DNA of 64,000 nucleotides from an uncultured Candidatus Melainabacteria bacterium (GTDB lineage: Bacteria > Cyanobacteriota > Vampirovibrionia > Gastranaerophilales > Gastranaerophilaceae). The stretch is from NCBI GenBank assembly GCA_934692625.1, contig CAKUUC010000010.1:5337-69336 (forward strand), in the 5' to 3' direction. The translations under genes and the position numbers were made by a program. Below are positions 1-10,067 of the stretch, piece after piece; within the stretch, counting starts at the first letter, position 1; every line of letters starts with the position of its first letter. The notes below the pieces were generated by a model. That model was not told the origin of the DNA, ran no database searches, and saw only the letters and a list, made by a program, of their open reading frames with translations.

Positions 1-27
1 CATGATTTTGCTACATATAATACTTTT

Positions 28-1122
28 TTGAATAAGTTAAATCCTGATGAATGTATTGTTTGTGGCAAGTTGACTCAAGGTATTCCGTTTATTGTGGCGC
101 TTTCTGATTTGGAATTAGACTTAACAAAAGAAGATGTTTTGGGCGAAAGATATCAATTTATTCCTGTCGTAGAAGATTTACAGTTGGTTAAAGTTGATGA
201 ATTCGGTAATAAGATTCCTGTTGAAATGCCACATGCGGAAGAAAAAGTAGAAAAAACAGAAGAAAAAGTTGATACAGAAGTTGATGAATCTGTTGTTGCA
301 TCAATTCCTGTAATTGAGCAAGCGCCGATTGAAGTTGTAGATGAAGTTGAAGAACCTGAACAAAATGTTGAAATTCCGGAACCGGCTAATGTTACGGTTG
401 ACGAAACTCCATCTGGTGAAGTTTTGGATATTGAAGAAGACGATTTGAATTTGTCAGATTCCGAACCTGATTTTGTTGATTCTGATATGATTGTGGAAGA
501 TGATTATCAACAAGATTTGTCGCAACAACCTTCTCTTGACGATTTGCAAGAGCCTGTTGATTTGACACTAGATGCAAATGAACCTGATATTGAGTCATCT
601 ATTGTTGAACCTGTAGGAAATTTACTTGATGATGAACCACCTTTGGAAGAAGATGATTTGGATTCAATTTTGTCAGAAGAACCTCAGCCGGAAGATGATT
701 TTGTAACTGAACCAAGTGTGGAAGAACAAGGCTTACAACAAGGCTATCCGGCATATTCAGAAGATGCATTAACTGAAGATGATTTAAACTTTTTAGAAGA
801 AAATCAATCAAATGTTCCGGAAGAGCCATTTAATGTAGATAAAGCGGTAGATTCAATATTTGATGATGATGAAGAGTTTGAACAACCAATAGAAAACGAA
901 CCGCCGGTAGTTCCTGTTTATCCTGCTGAAGAAAATACAAACAGTGGTGAAAACTTTGAATATAAGCAAGGTGATAGAGTTACTCACCATAGATATGGCA
1001 GAGGGGTTGTTGAAAAGATTATCAAATATGGTAATAAAACTCTTTGTTCAATTTCTTTTGAAAATGTTGGACGACGTTTGCTTGACCCGACAATTACAGA
1101 TTTGAAAAAATTGTCATTTTAG
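28..1122 (+). CDS. Highly acidic low-complexity protein with N-terminal CxxC and a C-terminal PcrA/UvrD-tail-like (DUF3553-type) domain; possibly 5' truncated by the window edge
   Basis: The frame is open back to base 1, so the TTG at 28 is an arbitrary start. It has a long D/E/P/V-rich middle. The C-terminal YKQGDRVTHHRYGRGVVEKI...SISFENVGRRLL resembles the small tail domain of PcrA/UvrD helicases. Confidence 0.5.
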   Translation: MNKLNPDECIVCGKLTQGIPFIVALSDLELDLTKEDVLGERYQFIPVVEDLQLVKVDEFGNKIPVEMPHAEEKVEKTEEKVDTEVDESVVASIPVIEQAPIEVVDEVEEPEQNVEIPEPANVTVDETPSGEVLDIEEDDLNLSDSEPDFVDSDMIVEDDYQQDLSQQPSLDDLQEPVDLTLDANEPDIESSIVEPVGNLLDDEPPLEEDDLDSILSEEPQPEDDFVTEPSVEEQGLQQGYPAYSEDALTEDDLNFLEENQSNVPEEPFNVDKAVDSIFDDDEEFEQPIENEPPVVPVYPAEENTNSGENFEYKQGDRVTHHRYGRGVVEKIIKYGNKTLCSISFENVGRRLLDPTITDLKKLSF

Positions 1123-1181
1123 TTGAAAAATAATGCTATTTGTCAGGTTGATTTAAGGTAAATTTTATTCATTACAAAATG

Positions 1182-1205
1182 AGAGAAGGCTTTTGAGCCT
1201 TCTCT
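1182..1205. terminator. Hairpin between convergent genes (bidirectional terminator candidate)
   Basis: AGAGAAGGCT-TTTG-AGCCTTCTCT is a perfect 10-bp stem flanked by A/T runs. Confidence 0.5.
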
Positions 1206-1232
1206 TAAAAATATTATGCTGCTTATTTTTTG

Positions 1233-2534
1233 TTAAATTTTTCCTATTTGGAAGTATTCAAAACCTTTTTCTGCCAATCTTTTTGCATCGTATTGATTTC
1301 TACCGTCGAAAATAATTGGAGTTTTTAGAGAGTCTTTTAATTTGTCAAAATCAGGACGTCTGAATTCGTTCCATTCGGTTAAAAGAACTACACAGTCTGC
1401 ATTTTGTAATGTTTCGGCAGTAGATTTTGAATAAGTAATTTTGTCACCAAAGTGGAATTTTGCTTGTTCCATTGCTTTTGGGTCAAATGCTTGAACTTTT
1501 GCACCGTGTTCTAGTAGTGAATTAATTATTGTAATTGCAGGCGCTTCACGCATATCGTTAGTTTTTGGCTTGAAAGCAAGTCCCCAGATTGCAAAGGTTT
1601 TGCCTGTTAAATCTGTACCAAAACGGTCAAAGATTTTGTTTAGGAAAATTTTACGTTGTTGTTTGTTTACGTTGTCGGCAGATTGGATAATCGACATTTC
1701 GCAATTGTTGTCGTGACCGGTTTTAATCAATGCTTTTACGTCTTTAGGGAAACAACTTCCGCCATATCCAAGTCCGGGAAAGAGGAATTTGTTACCAATT
1801 CTTGAATCTGTAGACATGCCTATTCTGACCATTTCGGCATCAGCGCCGACTTTTTCGCAGAGGTTTGCAATTTCGTTCATGAACGATATTTTTGTAGCGA
1901 GGAATGAATTTGAGGCATATTTTGTCATTTCTGCTGATTTTACGTCCATTACGATAATTCTGTTACCTGTGCGGAAAAATGGTGAATAAATTTCTTGCAT
2001 AATTGCGGTTGCTTTGTCGGAATTTGAACCGATGATAACACGGTCAGGTTTTAGGAAATCGTCAACGGCATTACCTTGTTTTAAGAATTCAGGATTAGAA
2101 ACGACATCAAACTCGTGGGTTGTGTGTTGCTTGATGATTTCGGTAACTTTTTGAGCAGTGCCGACCGGAACGGTTGATTTGTCAACGATAACTTTGTAGC
2201 CGTTCATTGCTTTGGCGATAGATTTTGCAACTTGAAAAACGTATTGCAAATCAGCAGAACCATCTTCACCTTGTGGAGTTCCAACAGCAATAAAGCAGAC
2301 ATCAGAGGCTTTGACAGCGGAATCGATGTCTGTAGAGAAAGATAGCCGGTTTTCAAGAACATTAGATTTAACAAGTTCTTCAAGTCCTGGTTCGTAGATA
2401 GGAATGATACCGGCTTTTAGTTGGTTAACTTTGTCGATGTTGTTGTCGATACAGATAACATTGTTGCCCATATCCGCAAGACAAGCACCTGCAACCAATC
2501 CGACATATCCCGTTCCTACTACTGTTACTATCAT
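1233..2534 (-). CDS. ugd: UDP-glucose 6-dehydrogenase
   Basis: 433 aa with the N-terminal Rossmann motif VVGTGYVGLVAGACLA, the catalytic region GGSCFPKDV and a full-length family architecture. AAGGAG RBS. Confidence 0.95.
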   Translation of the reverse strand: MIVTVVGTGYVGLVAGACLADMGNNVICIDNNIDKVNQLKAGIIPIYEPGLEELVKSNVLENRLSFSTDIDSAVKASDVCFIAVGTPQGEDGSADLQYVFQVAKSIAKAMNGYKVIVDKSTVPVGTAQKVTEIIKQHTTHEFDVVSNPEFLKQGNAVDDFLKPDRVIIGSNSDKATAIMQEIYSPFFRTGNRIIVMDVKSAEMTKYASNSFLATKISFMNEIANLCEKVGADAEMVRIGMSTDSRIGNKFLFPGLGYGGSCFPKDVKALIKTGHDNNCEMSIIQSADNVNKQQRKIFLNKIFDRFGTDLTGKTFAIWGLAFKPKTNDMREAPAITIINSLLEHGAKVQAFDPKAMEQAKFHFGDKITYSKSTAETLQNADCVVLLTEWNEFRRPDFDKLKDSLKTPIIFDGRNQYDAKRLAEKGFEYFQIGKI

Positions 2535-2554
2535 TTTTTACTCCTTATATTTTC

Positions 2555-5500
2555 TTAAATCCATTCGTTTATATCTTTTTTACTAGTTGTCCATTCGTGG
2601 TTGAATGTTCTTTCTTTTACTTTGCAATATTTGCAAAATGGTATTGGTTTAGCCAAAAATTCAAGAATTTCTTCCATTGATTCTGCTTTGTAAATATCAA
2701 TGCCATCTCTATCAGTCAAAGGAAGATTGTATCCAAAATATTTGTTAAAATGTTCAATATTTGGTGCAATCGTGCATGTATAAAGCTTTCCATCTTTCAA
2801 CATAACGCACCAATTTGCGTGAAAACAGTTCATAAAACTTTCGCCTGCGTTTTGTTTTCCTTCGATATCTAAAGGAAGATGGTAGGTCGTCTTTATTACA
2901 TCTTCAGTATTGTTATAATATTCGTATTTTACTCCGTAACTTTTGGCGGTTTCCTTTGCCTTGTCGTAATCTATGTTTAACGGATATTTTGTTGGTACGA
3001 TTGTTATATCAAATTTGTTGCAGGCATTCCAAAAATCTTCATTTTGTTGATTAAGTAAAAGCCCATTTGTTACTATTTCAATTCTTGTTTTGGGAAAATA
3101 TTTTCGTGATATTTCCATAAATTTATTAATTTCAGGATGTAATAATGGTTCTCCACCCATGAGTTTAATTATTTCTAAATTTTGATTAGATAATTCAGAA
3201 AGTCGTTTTACATCATGCTCGAAACTTTCAATATTTGCTAATTTTTCAGTCGCTAATGGTGAAAAATGGTCGCAACTTTTACATTTTAAGTTGCAATGGT
3301 CGGCAAGATGATAAACAAAACTTCTAAGCGATTTTTGCGGGGTAAGACTTTTTAGAGCAGTTTTATGTTCATTTTCTAAGTTTTTTATTGTTCGTTTATA
3401 GTCATTAAGTGTGCAATTAAAATTTTTAATTTCATTTTTTTGTTGATTTAATTCTGCACTTATTTTTTCTAAAGTTTTAGAAATGGATTCTACTTGAGGA
3501 TTCAAAATTCCTGTTTGGTTTTTCATAAACTTTTCACAATTACTAAGTTTCGGAGTTATAGAACTTATACTTTGCAAGCAAGAATTGACTTTCTCGTATA
3601 ATTCTTTCTTTTTATTACGAAAAGACATTTTTATACCTAAAAAGCGTATAACTTTATAATACTTATTACACGATTCTTGATTTGTTATAGAAAATAGTTT
3701 TTTAGTTAATATAGATTTTGGTTGCAAGTTGTGTTCTAATTCTGCAATATAATCTGTTTTTCTTGCATAATCCCACCATATATAACCTAAATATGCTTCA
3801 ATATTATCCCAAGGTTTTATCTTATCAGCATAATGGATTATGTGTGGATTAGTAATGGCTTCTTCAATTTCTTTTATTCCATAGATTTCGTTAAAATATT
3901 CAATGTCTAAATTGGTGTCTTTTACATAATATTGGGAATATTTTGTCATTAAGTTATATTTTAATGGTAAGATTAAAATATTATTCCGAAAAGCAATGTT
4001 TATAATATCTTGATCTTGTGATTGGAAATTATTTTTTGTTAATTCTAATAACTTGGGAGTTAAATTATCTTTTCTAATTTTATCTAAATTCCAAAGGGTT
4101 ACACCTGCATTTATGTAATTGGAAAGGTCAGTTAATCCTAAAGAGTTATAATAATGTACGTTAGGATTTTTTAGATATCCGAATGCAACAACTCCAGCGA
4201 TATAGCTATTCGTCATATCAGTGTTATACAGATTTGCTAAATCTTGAAGTATTATAGTGTCTATGTCCAAGTAAATAGCTTTTTCAAAATTAGAAGGCAA
4301 TAATTCTGCTATTTTTAGTCGATAATAAGTTGGACTTGTAATATGAAAAATTCTCATTTCTAATGAATCGAAGTCCTCATTTATCATAATGAATTGGATA
4401 TCGGAGTTATAATATCTTTTTACAAGAGTTTCCAATTTATGCTTATTGCTTTCAGAAAATTTGCTATCACAAAGTACATAAACTTTATAATAAGTTTTGA
4501 AGTTTTTATTTTCTAGTAATGAAACTAATGCTGTACTAAGATATTTTGCGCCATTATCGTCGGTAGCAAAAACTACTGGCACGGTTGTGCATTTTTCGAT
4601 AGGTAAATTAGTTGCTTTTCCGTTTGAATATACCCATTGCATAATATTTTGCCATTCATTTCGATTAAAATTCTCTCTGAGAATTTTAGAATTTTTGTAC
4701 CCGTCCAAAAATTCTATACTTAACTTCTTGTAAAAAAGTGCTTTTAAATCGTCTGAAATTCTATTATAGTTCCACATACAAGAATTGTATTTTTTCTTAT
4801 ATACTAATGGATAAAATTTTTCTTTATCTTCTTTTTTATTTAGATATTCTTCGATTTTTTCATATTCATCAAAAATACAATAAATTTTATTTTTATTATT
4901 TACAGAAGATTGCATATTATCTTGTCTATAATAATAAAAAGGTTTATTTATATAGAACGCCTTTCGTGCGTTGAAAATAATTTGATAATAAAACCCTTGG
5001 TCTTGATATGAGGCGCCAGGAGTTGGTAAATGTCTAATATTATGTTGATTTATAAAATCTCTTTTATATATTCCAGCCCAATTTGCAATAGTGCCTGGTG
5101 ATAAATTGCGATTATAAAATTCTGTAATTACTTTATTATAAAGGCATTTATCAGTTATACAATTAGTATAAATAACGTTCCACTTTTTAGACCACCAATA
5201 ATAAAAATCAGCTTTGACAAAATCTACGTCGAATTCGGTGGCTTTGTTGTATAGAACTTCGTACATGTCTTTTGCAACAAAATCATCTGGTTCTACAATG
5301 CCGATATATTCACCTGTTGCCATGTCTAAACCTTTGTTCATCGAGTCGCCATAACCGGAATTCGGTTTGTCAATAATTTTGATACGATTATCTTTTTGTG
5401 CGTATTCTTTGATTATAGAAAGAGAGCTATCTGTAGAGCCATCGTTCACGCAGATTATTTCGATGTCTTGCAATGTTTGATTGATTACGCTGTCCAAACA

Positions 5501-5557
5501 CTCTCTCAAATATTGTTCGACATTGTAAATCGGTATGATTATACTAACCTTCGGCAT
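2555..5557 (-). CDS. Tri-modular glycosyltransferase: GT2 + GT8 + radical SAM domain fusion
   Basis: GT2 N-terminus: MPKVSIIIPIYNVEQYL...VNDGSTD, EPDD. GT8 middle: VVFATDDN, YLDIDTIILQDL, NAGVTLWNL, HYADKIKPW. After a coiled-coil linker comes HCNLKCKSC (CX3CX2C), GGEPLLHP, VTNG and a C-terminal CKYCK. GAAGGAG RBS. Confidence 0.85.
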   Translation of the reverse strand: MPKVSIIIPIYNVEQYLRECLDSVINQTLQDIEIICVNDGSTDSSLSIIKEYAQKDNRIKIIDKPNSGYGDSMNKGLDMATGEYIGIVEPDDFVAKDMYEVLYNKATEFDVDFVKADFYYWWSKKWNVIYTNCITDKCLYNKVITEFYNRNLSPGTIANWAGIYKRDFINQHNIRHLPTPGASYQDQGFYYQIIFNARKAFYINKPFYYYRQDNMQSSVNNKNKIYCIFDEYEKIEEYLNKKEDKEKFYPLVYKKKYNSCMWNYNRISDDLKALFYKKLSIEFLDGYKNSKILRENFNRNEWQNIMQWVYSNGKATNLPIEKCTTVPVVFATDDNGAKYLSTALVSLLENKNFKTYYKVYVLCDSKFSESNKHKLETLVKRYYNSDIQFIMINEDFDSLEMRIFHITSPTYYRLKIAELLPSNFEKAIYLDIDTIILQDLANLYNTDMTNSYIAGVVAFGYLKNPNVHYYNSLGLTDLSNYINAGVTLWNLDKIRKDNLTPKLLELTKNNFQSQDQDIINIAFRNNILILPLKYNLMTKYSQYYVKDTNLDIEYFNEIYGIKEIEEAITNPHIIHYADKIKPWDNIEAYLGYIWWDYARKTDYIAELEHNLQPKSILTKKLFSITNQESCNKYYKVIRFLGIKMSFRNKKKELYEKVNSCLQSISSITPKLSNCEKFMKNQTGILNPQVESISKTLEKISAELNQQKNEIKNFNCTLNDYKRTIKNLENEHKTALKSLTPQKSLRSFVYHLADHCNLKCKSCDHFSPLATEKLANIESFEHDVKRLSELSNQNLEIIKLMGGEPLLHPEINKFMEISRKYFPKTRIEIVTNGLLLNQQNEDFWNACNKFDITIVPTKYPLNIDYDKAKETAKSYGVKYEYYNNTEDVIKTTYHLPLDIEGKQNAGESFMNCFHANWCVMLKDGKLYTCTIAPNIEHFNKYFGYNLPLTDRDGIDIYKAESMEEILEFLAKPIPFCKYCKVKERTFNHEWTTSKKDINEWI

Positions 5558-6542
5558 TTTTTACTCTCCTTCTAAATTTTATTTTTATCCCTAAGATTGT
5601 TAAAATCTTATGTGTTCCATCGTCTGCATTTCGTATTGAGAAAATTGTTTTAAAAATACGTTTACTTAAATATAGGTTTTTATCTTTGATAAAATTTTTA
5701 ATATCTGGATTATATTTTTTCATTTGATATATTTTGATTATTTCATTTAGGGTCAATATATCTGCTATTCCGTTATAATGTTCATTTAATCTACTTAAAG
5801 AATAGTAATTAAGTTTATCCAAGGAATTTTGTTTTGCCATTCGCATATCATCTGATATGCCAGATAACAAATCATTTAACTTTTGTTTTGTCCAAGTTAC
5901 TTTGTTATGACCACATCGATATCCGTAAGTAATTTTATCTATAGCGTAAAAATATCTAGCAGTAATCATTGCCTTAACAAAGAATGGTGGGTCTTGAAAT
6001 CTTTTATAATTTGGATAATAAATATTATTTCTAATTAAAAATTCTCTGTTATATATAAATCTATGATAGCCGTAGTCAAATTGATAATCTTTGTAGCAAA
6101 TAATTTGATTGCTATCAAATAAATATCCACTTAATGTATTTGTATAGTTTTGAGTTATTTGTGGATTAGTATTGGTGAAGCATGCAAATTCACCACCACA
6201 AATTAGAACGTGGTTTTCTTGTGCATTGACATAAAGACTTTCAAGAATATCTTGTGTTGGATAAATATCATCAGGATCTATAAAACAAACAAATTCTCCA
6301 CTTGCTTTGTCTATACCAACGTTACGAGTTTTTCCTACCCCTTCATTCTCTTTATCAATCAAGACAATTCGGTTATCTTTTTGGGCATATTCTTTTAGGA
6401 TTTCAAGTGAATTGTCTGTGGAGCCGTCGTTTATACAAATTATTTCAATATCTCGCAAAGTCTGATTAATTACGCTGTCCAAACACTCCCTCAAATATTT
6501 CTCAACGTTATAAACAGGTATGATTACGCTAACCTTTGGCAT
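5544..6542 (-). CDS. Family 2 glycosyltransferase
   Basis: MPKVSVIIPVYNVEKYLRECLDSVINQTL...INDGSTD, DPDD. The start is moved to the internal ATG at 6542, which follows a GGAAAGGA RBS. The stop overlaps the next gene's start by 14 nt. Confidence 0.85.
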   Translation of the reverse strand: MPKVSVIIPVYNVEKYLRECLDSVINQTLRDIEIICINDGSTDNSLEILKEYAQKDNRIVLIDKENEGVGKTRNVGIDKASGEFVCFIDPDDIYPTQDILESLYVNAQENHVLICGGEFACFTNTNPQITQNYTNTLSGYLFDSNQIICYKDYQFDYGYHRFIYNREFLIRNNIYYPNYKRFQDPPFFVKAMITARYFYAIDKITYGYRCGHNKVTWTKQKLNDLLSGISDDMRMAKQNSLDKLNYYSLSRLNEHYNGIADILTLNEIIKIYQMKKYNPDIKNFIKDKNLYLSKRIFKTIFSIRNADDGTHKILTILGIKIKFRRRVKNAEG

Positions 6543-6710: not shown

Positions 6711-6931
6711 AGATTGTCTGAAATGTTGCATAAGGTAAATTTGTTGAAGTTTTTAATCTTTTCAGAATGACGATAGCCTTGCTAGGTTGCCCCAACTTGT
6801 CACTCTGAACAGCACGAACGATAGTGAGTGCGTTGATTCAGAGTCTGTTTTATCTGAAGGTGTAGAACACTTAATATAGCTACGTCGATGGCGTTAATTT
6901 TACGTGTCAGGCAGTGCCTGACCTACGTTTT
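6711..6931 (+). repeat. Dispersed structured repeat, copy 1 (second copy at 61027-61191)
   Basis: Shares an identical 23-mer TTTTTAATCTTTTCAGAATGACG (6750-6772 = 61070-61092), a GTC-[8-bp hairpin]-CTGTTT module and the 3' block TTACGTGTCAGGC.GTGCC.TGACCTAC.TTTT with copy 2. Confidence 0.6.
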
Positions 6932-7150: not shown

Positions 7151-8938
7151 ATGGAAAAAATAAAAAAACTAATCGAATTTTTAAAAAATCAACGTTTTGT
7201 GGTGAATTACTGCAGAATGTGGCCATACGTTCGTCCGGTTTGGTTTAGAGCGTTATGTTCAATGCTTATTTGTATTCCAATCGGTTCGCTTGATGCGGTT
7301 ATTGCACTTGCGTTAAAACCTTATATGGACTTGGTTATGGTCGAAAAATCCGTAACTTCTCCTTGGTATATTCCGTTGGGGATTGTTGCGTTTACGTCAA
7401 TTCAAGGTGGGTTAAAATACTTGTCAGCATACCTTTCAACTTGGGTTGGTGGTAGAATTACGAACGGCTTGAAGTTTGATATGTTCAAAAAACTTTTGAC
7501 ATTGCCGACTTCGTTCTATGACAAACGTAATTCCGGAGATATCGTTTTTCAGTTTAACAATCAGGCAGATACTGCGTGTTCAGGCTTGTTGGACAATTTG
7601 AGCGTTTTCACTCAGAGAATTTTCTCATCAATTTCTCTTGTTTGTGTTTTGTTTTACAACTCTTGGCAACTTGCGCTGATTGCGGTTGTAGTTTTGGGTT
7701 GTGCTTTTGCTCCGGTTGCAAAACTTCAAAAACGTATCAAATCAGTTATGGAAAAAACAGTTTTTGCAGATGCTTCGATTATCACGGAATATAACGAAGT
7801 TTTTGCGGGTAACAAGACAATTACTTCTTACAACTTGCAACAAAACGAAACTAATAAATTCTATAATATTTTGAAAAGTATTTTCACATTGAGAATAAAA
7901 ATGGTGCAAAAAACTCAATGGCTTTCTCCAATGATGCACGTAATTGTATCTGTCGGAATTGCGGCGGCTATCGGTTACGGTTCGCACTTGATTATGTCTA
8001 AGCAAATTACTTCCGGTAACTTTGTATCATTTATTACAGCGTTAATTTTGCTTTACACACCTGTTAAAAATATCGGCAATAACTTGAATGCGGTTCAATT
8101 CTCGTTCTTCTCTATCGAAAGAATTTTTGATATTTTGGATATGGTTCCTGCTATCAGAAATAAAGATAATGCAATTGAAATGGGTAGAGAACATACAAGC
8201 ATTCAATTTAACGATGTTTGTTTTGAATATGTGAAAAATGTTCCGGTGTTGAAACATATTAATCTTGATGTAAAACAAGGTGAAACTATTGCGTTTGTTG
8301 GTAATTCTGGCGGTGGAAAAACTACAATCGTAAATTTGTTACCGAGATTTTATGATATAAAATCAGGTTCAATAAAGATTGATGGCGTGGATATTAGAGA
8401 TTATACGTTGGAATCTTTAAGACAAAATATTGCAGTTGTATTTCAGGATAATTTTTTGTTTTCCGGAACGATTAAAGAAAATATTTTGCTAGGTAATGAA
8501 AATGCGACGGATGAACAGGTTCAAAAGGCCTTGAAGATGGCATATTTGGACGATTTCATTTCGACATTGAAAGACGGTATAAATACTCAAATTGGTGAAC
8601 GTGGTATATTGTTGTCAGGTGGTCAAAAACAACGTGTAGCAATTGCCAGAGCCTTTTTGAAAGATGCACCGATAATTATTTTGGACGAAGCAACAAGTGC
8701 ATTAGATAATAAAGCGGAAGCGATTGTTCAAAAAGCGATTGACAACCTAATGCAAGACAAAACGGTATTTGTAATCGCTCACAGATTGTCAACAATTAGA
8801 AATGCTAATAAAATTGTCGTAATCAATCAAGGTGAAGTTGCTGAAACCGGAACACACGAGGAATTGTTGCAAATCGAAAACGGCGCATACAAAACTCTTT
8901 ATGATATGCAGTTCAAAAAACAAGAAGTTAAGGCGTAA
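7151..8938 (+). CDS. ABC transporter, fused permease/ATPase (MsbA-like lipid/glycolipid exporter family)
   Basis: 595 aa. N-terminal six-TM domain, Walker A GNSGGGKTT, signature LSGGQKQRVAIARA and Walker B IIILDEATSALD. Confidence 0.9.
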   Translation: MEKIKKLIEFLKNQRFVVNYCRMWPYVRPVWFRALCSMLICIPIGSLDAVIALALKPYMDLVMVEKSVTSPWYIPLGIVAFTSIQGGLKYLSAYLSTWVGGRITNGLKFDMFKKLLTLPTSFYDKRNSGDIVFQFNNQADTACSGLLDNLSVFTQRIFSSISLVCVLFYNSWQLALIAVVVLGCAFAPVAKLQKRIKSVMEKTVFADASIITEYNEVFAGNKTITSYNLQQNETNKFYNILKSIFTLRIKMVQKTQWLSPMMHVIVSVGIAAAIGYGSHLIMSKQITSGNFVSFITALILLYTPVKNIGNNLNAVQFSFFSIERIFDILDMVPAIRNKDNAIEMGREHTSIQFNDVCFEYVKNVPVLKHINLDVKQGETIAFVGNSGGGKTTIVNLLPRFYDIKSGSIKIDGVDIRDYTLESLRQNIAVVFQDNFLFSGTIKENILLGNENATDEQVQKALKMAYLDDFISTLKDGINTQIGERGILLSGGQKQRVAIARAFLKDAPIIILDEATSALDNKAEAIVQKAIDNLMQDKTVFVIAHRLSTIRNANKIVVINQGEVAETGTHEELLQIENGAYKTLYDMQFKKQEVKA

Positions 8939-8955: not shown

Positions 8956-8984
8956 ATACCCTCAATCTTGAGGGTATTTTTTTA
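8956..8984. terminator. Rho-independent terminator shared by convergent genes
   Basis: ATACCCTCA-ATCT-TGAGGGTAT followed by TTTTTT, with an A-run on the other side. Confidence 0.75.
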
Positions 8985-10067
8985 TGCTTCAGAATTATCT
9001 TTTCCTAAAATTGTTTTGCCAAATAGTTTCAAATATTTGCCTCTGCTATTAAATTTGAGTTGAATAAATCTGCGACGAATACTTTTGAATGCTGTTAAAT
9101 AATAATTTCCTTTTTCAATATTTTTTATGAATTTAGTTTCACAATCATAAAAATATTTATATTCAAATTTAGTATCATTATTTAAGTCTTGAAATAATAT
9201 TTTAAGTTTATCAAAATATTGTTTTCTATATTTTGGTTGAATATCATTATAAAATGAAAAATTTGCCAAGAAAAAGTGTTTATACATTGCTTCTTTTAAA
9301 TCTTCATATAAACCACATTTTTTTACAATATTTTTTACTTCTTCGCATTGGTCTGGCATAATTAATAATCGACTACCTTTTTGGTTTGTTGAGGAATTTT
9401 GACCTTCTTCAACTCTCCAGTGATATAAATAGTCGTGCAATACTGCAATTTTATCAGCCTTACACATTACTTCTGCCATAAATGGAAAGTCTTGATATGA
9501 TGCAGAACGTGTCCCATTAATTATAATATTATTTTTTTTCAAAAATTCTGCTTTATATATATTACTCCAAATTGATGCATGAAACATAAATAATCTTGGG
9601 AATTCTTTTATTTTGAAAGCTCTATCTTGTGGATATTCTTCAATATTTTGAATTTCATCTTGCCATTTTTGATTTTCAAGTTTTTTATTTATTGCTTTTG
9701 AATTATATCTGTAAAAACTTGCTTTGCACACATCAGCATCAAGTTTTTTTGCTTGGTTATAGAGTTTTTCATACATTTCAGGTTCAACCCAGTCGTCAGT
9801 TTCGACAATACCGATGTATTCCCCTGTTGCTGCTTCAATACCTGCGTTAACTGCACTTCCATATCCCCCGTTAGGTTTGTGAATTGGTTTTACTCGAGGG
9901 TCTTTTTGTGCATATTCATCCATAATTGCACCACAATTGTCCGGAGAACCATCATCTACCGGAATTATTTCGATATCTGTTAATGTTTGATTTATTACAC
10001 TTTCAATACATTGTCTAAAATATTTTTCAACATTATATGTTGGCATAACTATTGAAACTTTTGTCAT
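8982..10067 (-). CDS. Family 2 glycosyltransferase
   Basis: MTKVSIVMPTYNVEKYFRQCIESVINQTL...VDDGSPD, ETDD. Paralogous to the two GT2 N-termini upstream. GGAGGA RBS. Confidence 0.85.
   Translation of the reverse strand: MTKVSIVMPTYNVEKYFRQCIESVINQTLTDIEIIPVDDGSPDNCGAIMDEYAQKDPRVKPIHKPNGGYGSAVNAGIEAATGEYIGIVETDDWVEPEMYEKLYNQAKKLDADVCKASFYRYNSKAINKKLENQKWQDEIQNIEEYPQDRAFKIKEFPRLFMFHASIWSNIYKAEFLKKNNIIINGTRSASYQDFPFMAEVMCKADKIAVLHDYLYHWRVEEGQNSSTNQKGSRLLIMPDQCEEVKNIVKKCGLYEDLKEAMYKHFFLANFSFYNDIQPKYRKQYFDKLKILFQDLNNDTKFEYKYFYDCETKFIKNIEKGNYYLTAFKSIRRRFIQLKFNSRGKYLKLFGKTILGKDNSEA

Follow-up and report, generated by a model that had tools for sequence, protein, structure and literature searches.

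A GT2-GT8-radical SAM fusion protein of an uncultured Melainabacteria bacterium as a candidate cassette-borne tailoring enzyme of surface glycans

Closest described systems

Twitch-type radical S-adenosylmethionine (SAM) enzymes that dehydrogenate or epimerize sugars have been described in the biosynthesis of aminoglycoside and aminocyclitol antibiotics. Bacterial surface glycans, for their part, are known to owe their diversity to nucleotide-sugar pathways, to the specificity of the transferases, and to decorations of a non-radical kind, such as acetyl, methyl, pyruvyl, phosphoryl, and amide groups. Here we describe a 1000-residue protein in which a radical SAM domain, predicted to be of the twitch type, is joined to glycosyltransferase (GT) domains of families GT2 and GT8; it is encoded in a 64,000-nucleotide (nt) stretch of contig CAKUUC010000010.1 (GCA_934692625.1) from an uncultured Candidatus Melainabacteria bacterium of the Gastranaerophilales, and this whole stretch is called the window below. 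A literature search for radical SAM enzymes in capsule or O-antigen synthesis or in GT fusions returned nothing relevant. Based on its fold and genetic context, and on analogy with the systems described next, the domain is probably a cassette-borne tailoring domain that would abstract hydrogen from a C-H of a sugar in the growing glycan and so epimerize or oxidize it.

SpeY is a stand-alone enzyme that serves antibiotic biosynthesis in an actinomycete, where it oxidizes a secondary alcohol of the sugar in a spectinomycin precursor. It is like the fusion domain in its length (~300 residues), in its motifs (CX3CX2C, GGEPLLHP, and TNG), and in having a twitch region at the C-terminus; the fusion domain, however, forms the C-terminal part of a GT2-GT8 protein encoded among surface-glycan genes, has conserved residues of its own (H754, D782, Y858, K889, D897, Q902, N915, D951, and W989), and carries an extra cysteine, Cys917. 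BtrN, the 2-deoxy-scyllo-inosamine dehydrogenase and founding twitch enzyme, shares with the fusion domain the placing of its four auxiliary-cluster cysteines (the first ahead of a beta hairpin, the second behind it, and the last two as a CX2C that follows a helix), but it is a weaker fold match and oxidizes a free aminocyclitol without any GT fusion. HygY, a relative of SpeY, epimerizes C2' of a glycoside in hygromycin B biosynthesis, and a single cysteine reportedly decides between the epimerase and dehydrogenase outcomes; it too is a twitch enzyme acting on the sugar of a glycoside, and the fusion family has a non-ligand cysteine, C917, in 84% of its domains. HygY appears as a radical SAM sugar epimerase in the title of a reference cited in PMC10991966, and AbmJ is named as another such epimerase in a passage of PMC9978623.

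Campylobacter jejuni Cj1438 consists of a GT2 domain (residues 1–325), a linker domain (326–452), and a TupA-like ATP-grasp domain (453–776) that amidates glucuronic acid (GlcA) where the capsule chain grows, at its non-reducing end; the next transferase accepts the amidated sugar only, so that amidation must precede it (PMC11800379). The fusion shares with Cj1438 the N-terminal GT2 domain, the linker, and the C-terminal tailoring domain, and its allele in a sister locus, P0003 (see below), has just such an ATP-grasp domain beside Ugd. The fusion itself differs in having radical SAM in place of ATP-grasp, an extra GT8 module, and an MsbA-type rather than a KpsMT exporter in its locus. WbdD and WbbB, coiled-coil regulators of ATP-binding cassette (ABC) transporter-dependent O-antigens, likewise have a modifying domain set off from the polymerizing activity by a long helical spacer, but their chemistry is that of a kinase/methyltransferase or a Kdo transferase, and the exporter of the fusion locus is of the MsbA and not the Wzm/Wzt type.

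Architecture of the fusion and fold of its radical SAM domain

The fusion gene occupies positions 2555..5557 of the window on the minus strand and runs from ATG to TAA with zero internal stops. An earlier reading of this DNA, made from the sequence alone (the sequence-only reading), had claimed a single uninterrupted open reading frame (ORF) of three modules; hidden Markov model (HMM) searches and the predicted structure agree with this, though the strand had to be corrected to minus. The domain search that it had proposed gave matches to four Pfam families, Glycos_transf_2, Glyco_transf_8, Radical_SAM, and Fer4_12, with GT2, GT8, and Radical_SAM above their cutoffs, and all of the motifs that it quoted (HCNLKCKSC, GGEPLLHP, VTNG, CKYC, YLDIDTI, and HYADKIKPW) were located in the protein. 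A full-length AlphaFold2 model (mean predicted local distance difference test score, pLDDT, 88.7) resolved five parts, in N- to C-terminal order GT2, GT8, a beta motif, two helices, and radical SAM. These parts, and two cysteine regions within the last of them, are as follows.

4628..5557, minus strand: GT2 module, residues 1–310, with a helical acceptor-side subdomain (Pfam PF00535, NCBIfam, AlphaFold2)
3725..4588, minus strand: GT8 module, residues 324–611 (Pfam PF01501; DxD in YLDIDTI; HYADKIKPW)
3617..3694, minus strand: junction beta motif, residues 622–647, FS.xN...K..R.LGIKMSF (three short strands in AlphaFold2)
3323..3616, minus strand: helical coiled-coil-like linker, residues 648–745 (AlphaFold2 helices 649–680 and 688–738)
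2558..3322, minus strand: twitch-type radical SAM domain, residues 746–1000, as predicted from Pfam, AlphaFold2, and Foldseek
3272..3295, minus strand: CX3CX2C motif HCNLKCKSC with C755, C759, and C762 (kept in 309, 310, and 311 of 311 family domains, respectively)
2624..2827, minus strand: putative auxiliary-cluster region with C911, C928, C975, C978, and the semi-conserved C917 (311-domain alignment)

The architecture and fold of the fusion are well supported, and we infer its reaction from fold and context. Pfam Radical_SAM (PF04055) matched residues 753–840 with a score of 32.7 bits (gathering cutoff, 29.5), and Fer4_12 matched residues 750–853. The motifs for SAM binding and cluster ligation, on which the sequence-only reading had staked its identification of the domain, are all kept across the 311-domain alignment: besides the CX3CX2C cysteines, E803 of the GGE and Y858 are present in every domain and N831 of the TNG in 310, while C911 is found in 310 and C928, C975, and C978 in 311 each (GGEPLLHP lies at 801–808, VTNG at 829–832, and CKYC at 975–978). 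The fifth C-terminal cysteine, C917, is present in 261 of the 311 (84%). G801-G802-E803 is unchanged across 64 relatives, and T856 is strongly conserved in the 311 domains, as are the other residues named above as the domain's own. An AlphaFold2 model of the domain built from a 64-sequence alignment (pLDDT 96.3) placed C911 before a beta hairpin (919–921, 924–926) and C928 after it, followed by a helix (930–941) and then C975-x2-C978, an arrangement that matches the twitch-domain layout for an auxiliary [4Fe-4S] cluster in BtrN; the hairpin and helix expected around the ligands of such a cluster are thus both present in the predicted structure.

A Foldseek search of the PDB ranked SpeY first (7wzv, 7wzx, and 7x0b; E-value 1.9e-15, template modeling (TM) score 0.72, 275 columns, 21–22% identity) and BtrN with its substrate second (4m7t; 7.5e-8, TM 0.50), followed by weaker matches (TM ≤0.50) to MoaA, CteB, viperins, anSME, SkfB, and EpeE. 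SpeY was also the top match by sequence (E-value 6.8e-17 in a single-sequence search, 4.7e-20 for the family profile), and as judged from the predicted model the closest structure is by a wide margin SpeY, not BtrN, an assignment that is new. The view of the sequence-only reading that the domain matches no described enzyme must therefore be given up, though the relative that we found stands at 21% identity. No NCBIfam model claims the domain, the best being MoaA (41 bits) and NF033640 (39.6 bits).

Peptide-modifying enzymes (CteB, anSME, SkfB, and EpeE) are among the weaker fold matches, and it is conceivable that the domain performs a non-sugar chemistry of the kinds known from many SPASM and twitch enzymes, such as cross-linking or the modification of a lipid carrier, a protein, or a peptide. 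We regard this as very unlikely, as the best match by far is a sugar dehydrogenase (TM 0.72 vs ≤0.50), family members from many phyla are consistently either joined to GTs or encoded next to them, and neither precursor-peptide-like genes nor a recognition domain of ribosomally synthesized and post-translationally modified peptides was seen in the six loci examined.

Of the two GT modules, Pfam PF00535 matched residues 5–122 of the first (E-value 1.5e-35, 123 bits vs a threshold of 23.3) and NCBIfam PRK10073 residues 2–245 (147 bits); its NDGSTD and EPDD motifs are present, its AlphaFold2 pLDDT is mostly >90, and we assign it to family GT2. The second is assigned to GT8 based on PF01501, which matched residues 328–586 over model positions 2–252 of 253 (3.4e-34, 119 bits vs 24.3), with the DID at 431–433 and HYADKIKPW at 574–582. 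An NCBIfam model for lipopolysaccharide (LPS) 3-alpha-galactosyltransferase matched residues 324–589 of the fusion with an E-value of 3.9e-15, under its cutoff.

Between these modules and the radical SAM domain lie the junction motif and the linker. The motif reads LFSITNQESCNKYYKVIRFLGIKMSF in the fusion (residues 621–646), and its counterpart at the end of the neighboring GT2 reads IFSIRNADDGTHKILTILGIKIKF. The sequence-only reading was right that the two proteins have this tail in common, but its description of the tail as amphipathic fails as far as a helix is meant, since AlphaFold2 predicts beta strands, in the form of a three-stranded meander (622–629, 632–639, and 642–647; pLDDT about 65). 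In ~20 other fusions the junction motif likewise stands directly upstream of the radical SAM domain, and it may serve in docking or in association with the membrane. A more general form of it, FS.xN..(6-12)..K...hLG[ILV]K[ILFM]x[FILV], marks module junctions in many multi-GT proteins; sites include window 3617-3694, window 5544-5650 (the tail of the neighboring GT2), residues 42-75 of the stand-alone relative P0122, and the N-terminus of an ORF in locus L048, and the motif is doubled at an exact 40-residue spacing in P0009, P0018, P0037, P0070, and P0082. For the linker, a coiled-coil-like stretch of ~90 residues had been proposed, and its two predicted helices do have heptad character, with 73% hydrophobicity in one heptad register.

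Natural variants of the fusion

The identical 1000-residue protein is encoded on 19 contigs (NCBI, ENA, and Logan), and its 90% cluster contains 11 further distinct variants (93–99.9% identity), all exactly 1000 residues long, plus one fragment. Among more distant homologs, P0004 (1086 residues, 43% identity) has a three-domain layout like that of the fusion, and P0005 (968 residues, 41% identity) aligns over the full length, with no recorded GT8 Pfam match. An assembly error or frameshift uniting separate genes might be suspected, as in P0122 the radical SAM unit is indeed a separate gene that overlaps the preceding GT gene. The recurrence of the exact product on 19 contigs from three sources, the constant length of the 11 variants, and the full-length coverage by homologs at 41–43% identity make this exceedingly improbable; as far as public assemblies permit, an artefact is ruled out and the suspicion essentially refuted.

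Variable sites among the 12 natural variants amount to 4.7% in the radical SAM domain, 4.8% in GT2, 10.3% in GT8, and 26.5% in the helical linker, the fastest-changing region; in the junction motif one of 26 sites differs. As the radical SAM domain is as constrained as GT2, it is a part of the fusion that is functional and under purifying selection, and the linker is a spacer with little constraint.

An exchangeable cassette in the surface-glycan locus

Comparison with a sister locus (L009) brings in the following genes and segments of the window.

1233..2534, minus strand: Ugd, UDP-glucose 6-dehydrogenase, 20 nt downstream of the fusion gene (Pfam UDPG_MGDP_dh N, central, and C)
2581..3601, minus strand: swappable cassette of linker and radical SAM, replaced by a linker and TupA ATP-grasp in L009
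5544..6581, minus strand: upstream GT2, 345 residues, overlapping the fusion start by 14 nt
7151..8938, plus strand: divergent MsbA-type ABC exporter (NCBIfam MsbA_lipidA 533 bits vs a cutoff of 602)
8982..10067, minus strand: third GT2 of the locus, 361 residues (PF00535, E-value 9.4e-41)

The Ugd protein matched the NCBIfam TuaD model with 547 bits and that for nucleoside diphosphate (NDP)-sugar dehydrogenases with 471 bits. The upstream GT2, the fusion, and Ugd are all on the minus strand and tightly spaced, and thus look like one operon. L009 is syntenic, with genes for a histidine kinase, Ogt, a GT2, an MsbA-like exporter, a GT2, the fusion, Ugd, and an acidic protein. Its allele of the fusion, P0003, is 91% identical over residues 1–647, after which it has another, short coil and a TupA ATP-grasp domain (Pfam ATPgrasp_TupA, E-value 2.3e-59), so that the identity of the two proteins ends immediately past the junction motif. 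At the DNA level, blastn of the window against L009 gave 90.6% identity up to position 3602, no similarity over 3601–2581, and 93.9% identity from 2580 onward, the identity restarting at the stop codon of the fusion and the start of Ugd. The DNA of the two loci is otherwise 90–94% identical, except in two coding segments and in the intergenic stretch that precedes the operon. The second intragenic swap (window 5655–6333) covers the acceptor-side middle two thirds of the upstream GT2: the first ~80 and last ~35 residues of that protein and its L009 counterpart are near-identical and the cores are unrelated. The boundaries of the swaps fall at two conserved elements, the N-terminus of GT2 and the beta motif.

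This natural allele pair, with radical SAM and ATP-grasp as alternatives on a nearly identical GT2-GT8 chassis, is new. The co-replacement of the GT2 core is as expected if that transferase must recognize a differently tailored acceptor, and the exchange of both the cassette and the acceptor half of the neighboring GT2 suggests that the locus works as a serotype-like switch of glycan variation. As P0122 has the same beta motif, coil, and radical SAM domain as a gene of its own, the mobile unit would be all three, fused or split. By analogy, P0003 and the adjacent Ugd would fit the Cj1438 scheme directly, and from its position and fold the radical SAM domain of the fusion is most likely a co-synthetic tailoring enzyme acting on the newly added sugar.

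The recombination breakpoint coincides with the junction motif. Between the GT operon and the exporter gene, the intergenic DNA is rearranged relative to L009, with a lone conserved island of 61 nt (window 6750-6810 vs L009 7350-7409).

The helical linker and the exporter bear on another reading, in which the domain is a chain terminator or length ruler like WbdD or WbbB: the coil would keep it a set distance away from the polymerizing GTs, and its radical modification of the non-reducing end would stop elongation and license export. A heptad-bearing predicted helical linker of ~90 residues does separate the GTs from the modifying domain, linker length and sequence vary among relatives, and coiled-coil N-terminal extensions are common in the stand-alone members. 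However, the exporter is of the MsbA type, with no Wzm/Wzt-type ABC-2 transporter among the annotated neighbors; the locus has only four GT domains, suggesting an oligosaccharide; and some family loci have two or three radical SAM paralogs. Cj1438, moreover, tailors every repeat, as a prerequisite for elongation and not for termination (PMC11800379). We consider a ruler unlikely.

A large family in glycan loci of anaerobes

A profile search of 1.84 billion 50%-identity representatives with a threshold of 1e-30 sized the family at 1,823 clusters (50% identity) with E-values of 1e-30 or better. A search with the isolated domain identified >1,800 proteins (90% clustering), typically of 280–400 residues and 50–72% identical, none of which has a functional name. 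Among the 120 top full-length matches, 44 carry the radical SAM domain at the C-terminus of GT2, GT8, GT2-GT8, GT2-ATP-grasp, or GT2-GT9 proteins; in 43 of these it ends a few residues from the C-terminus, the exception being P0004, in which it ends 21 residues short. A scan of one genome per species yielded 489 relatives, the closest (65%) in the Gastranaerophilales and others in Smithella, Syntrophales, Clostridia, Lachnospiraceae, Bacteroidales, Spirochaetes, Synergistaceae, Selenomonadaceae, Endomicrobia, Helicobacter sp. MIT 05-5294 (two copies), and Campylobacter novaezeelandiae; the hosts are all anaerobes or microaerophiles. With the family thus sized, the conservation of its ligands measured, and a transferable unit of beta motif, coil, and domain defined, these results are likewise new.

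The sequence-only reading had suggested a search for stand-alone homologs and their genomic partners, and stand-alone members do occur inside glycan loci. The closest of them, P0122 (397 residues, 72% identity in the core), consists of beta motif, coil, and radical SAM, and its gene overlaps that of a preceding 948-residue GT2 and is followed by Ugd. A Bacteroidales locus has a GT4, an ABC-2 permease, an ABC ATPase, a TupA ATP-grasp, radical SAM, a GT/methyltransferase, and a 1473-residue multi-GT protein; an Endomicrobium locus has two adjacent MsbA-like exporters, a GT2-GT9, a GT2, and radical SAM; another metagenome locus has two GT2 genes, a GT2-GT2-ATP-grasp, radical SAM, and Ugd; and in a Butyrivibrio locus radical SAM is found with a row of GT2 genes and a UDP-galactopyranose mutase. 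Of the fused members, a GT8-radical SAM protein follows two GT2 genes and a GT2-radical SAM protein directly follows a GT2-GT9 gene. ATP-grasp and radical SAM also occur together in one protein or locus (P0070 and P0082; the Bacteroidales and metagenome loci).

Counts of neighbors, made by single-sequence searches around 80 diverse family loci, gave GT2 in 35, an MsbA-like exporter in 17, TupA ATP-grasp in 7, GT8 in 7, and Ugd in 2. The commonest partner is a generic NDP-sugar short-chain dehydrogenase/reductase, not assignable to UDP-xylose synthase by NCBIfam, and aminotransferases occur in three loci. A general association with Ugd was rejected, as it is present in two of the 80 loci; the adjacency recurs only in the close clade.

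The position of Ugd directly downstream of the fusion, and its presence in two related architectures, could also mean that the domain acts on the nucleotide-sugar donor, e.g., by epimerization of UDP-glucuronate or a BlsE-like decarboxylation, with the product channeled to the fused GTs. The profile also matched BlsE (1.6e-7), a radical SAM enzyme that decarboxylates a glucuronate moiety, and the substrate of BtrN is a free small molecule. On the other hand, SpeY acts on an already glycosylated intermediate, BlsE is outside the top 50 fold matches, and 78 of the 80 diverse loci are without Ugd. The TupA-like ATP-grasp of Cj1438, which is like the allelic counterpart of our domain, acts on chain-bound GlcA (PMC11800379). 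Modification of the donor is therefore, in our judgment, improbable.

At least ten of the 80 loci hold two or three radical SAM paralogs; those with adjacent paralogs are L030, L033, L050, L051, L053, L058, L068, L074, L087, and L089. Six further proteins among the 120 top full-length matches are tandem radical SAM-radical SAM fusions (P0047, P0048, P0051, P0055, P0066, and P0069). Such tandem and paralogous copies suggest several distinct radical tailoring steps per glycan.

The family is accessory, being found in five of 25 same-genus genomes and two of 16 others of the same order. Two same-genus species have a homolog with one in-frame TAA (G005:C22:63776-64615, G005:C52:2818-3657, and G011:C1:170003-170839), which may be decaying there.

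Proposed role in glycan tailoring

The reading that we favor, tailoring of a sugar on the nascent chain, would run as follows. The GT2 (inverting) and GT8 (retaining) modules would add sugars to a lipid-linked surface glycan at the cytoplasmic face of the membrane, with UDP-glucuronate supplied by the co-transcribed Ugd and export through the MsbA-type ABC transporter. The beta motif and helical spacer would tether the C-terminal tailoring domain, a putative twitch radical SAM enzyme with two [4Fe-4S] clusters, one that binds SAM and one that is auxiliary. Its 5'-deoxyadenosyl radical would take a hydrogen from a carbon of the sugar newly added to the chain. Return of a hydrogen to the opposite face, for which Cys917 is a candidate donor, would give epimerization, while passage of an electron to the auxiliary cluster would give oxidation to a keto sugar. 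The linker and tailoring domain would form an exchangeable cassette, replaced in the sister strain by a putative glucuronate-amidating ATP-grasp, together with a different acceptor half of the neighboring GT2.

The architecture, the fold, the conservation of the cluster ligands, the exchange of the cassette, and the genomic setting of the family are what the analysis shows; that the substrate is a glycan-bound sugar we infer, and likewise the type of reaction and its timing. A radical-mediated sugar modification coupled to glycosyl transfer, as the sequence-only reading had envisaged, fits the SpeY and BtrN folds and the fusion or adjacency to GTs. Epimerization or dehydrogenation at a sugar C-H is favored, and the presence of Cys917 as a candidate hydrogen-atom donor would favor epimerization; the 16% of domains that lack it might be dehydrogenases. 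C-methylation is unlikely, as residues 746–1000 have no Pfam or NCBIfam match outside the radical SAM and Fer4 families, and a B12-dependent or HemN-like methylase was rejected on the same matches. Since the enzyme needs SAM and a reductant, a cytoplasmic location is required. The MsbA-type exporter, the GT8 module (LPS-type), and the GT9 fusions among relatives suggest a lipid-linked oligosaccharide, and the product is possibly a lipooligosaccharide-type glycan built in the cytoplasm.

Several points weigh against tailoring on the chain. Identity to SpeY is 21–22% and the alignment at the sequence level spans the N-terminal half only; with the NCBIfam twitch model NF033640 (N_Twi_rSAM) the domain scored 39.6 bits against a cutoff of 170, which places it outside that subfamily. 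Among the clustered ORFs around 80 members there was no conserved product-defining partner, and none besides radical SAM occurred in more than 13 loci. As the adjacency of Ugd is clade-specific (2/80), a glucuronate substrate cannot be generalized, and as ATP-grasp and radical SAM co-occur, they are not strict functional alternatives.

Taking the family as a whole, we tentatively suggest that it may be a large, uncharacterized group of twitch enzymes that epimerize or oxidize unactivated carbons of surface-glycan sugars during chain building, borne on plug-in cassettes that recombine at junction motifs and switch glycan structure between strains. If so, radical SAM chemistry would have been shown for the first time in the assembly of a polysaccharide or lipooligosaccharide, and would offer an oxygen-free inversion or oxidation of unactivated carbons after transfer, with residues that no cellular nucleotide-sugar pathway supplies. 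A large, patchy family and a swap at defined junctions form the pattern expected of strain-level variation in antigens or phage receptors among gut anaerobes. Its members would also be candidate biocatalysts for late-stage epimerization of glycosides, and with the radical SAM/ATP-grasp allele pair nature has supplied an experimental system in which the GT2-GT8 chassis is 91% identical.

Additional observations

Many family members of 370-440 residues carry, at the N-terminus, not a coiled coil but a Rossmann-like domain of ~100 residues (GxGxxG-type; PF22674 C2185-like_N or PglD_N-like), e.g., P0245, P0253, P0259-P0261, P0273, P0276, P0278, P0284, and P0285. PF22674 was considered as a model of the coiled coil or junction motif and rejected, as it looks Rossmann-like and P0001 has no Pfam match there. 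A small Rossmann-like domain of this kind also terminates several GT2 proteins in the Butyrivibrio locus L014. The exporter of the fusion locus is one of three MsbA-like half-transporters in the 1.94-Mb genome (window 7151-8938, G000:C13:30687-32417, and G000:C8:81067-82848), which are 52–59% identical.

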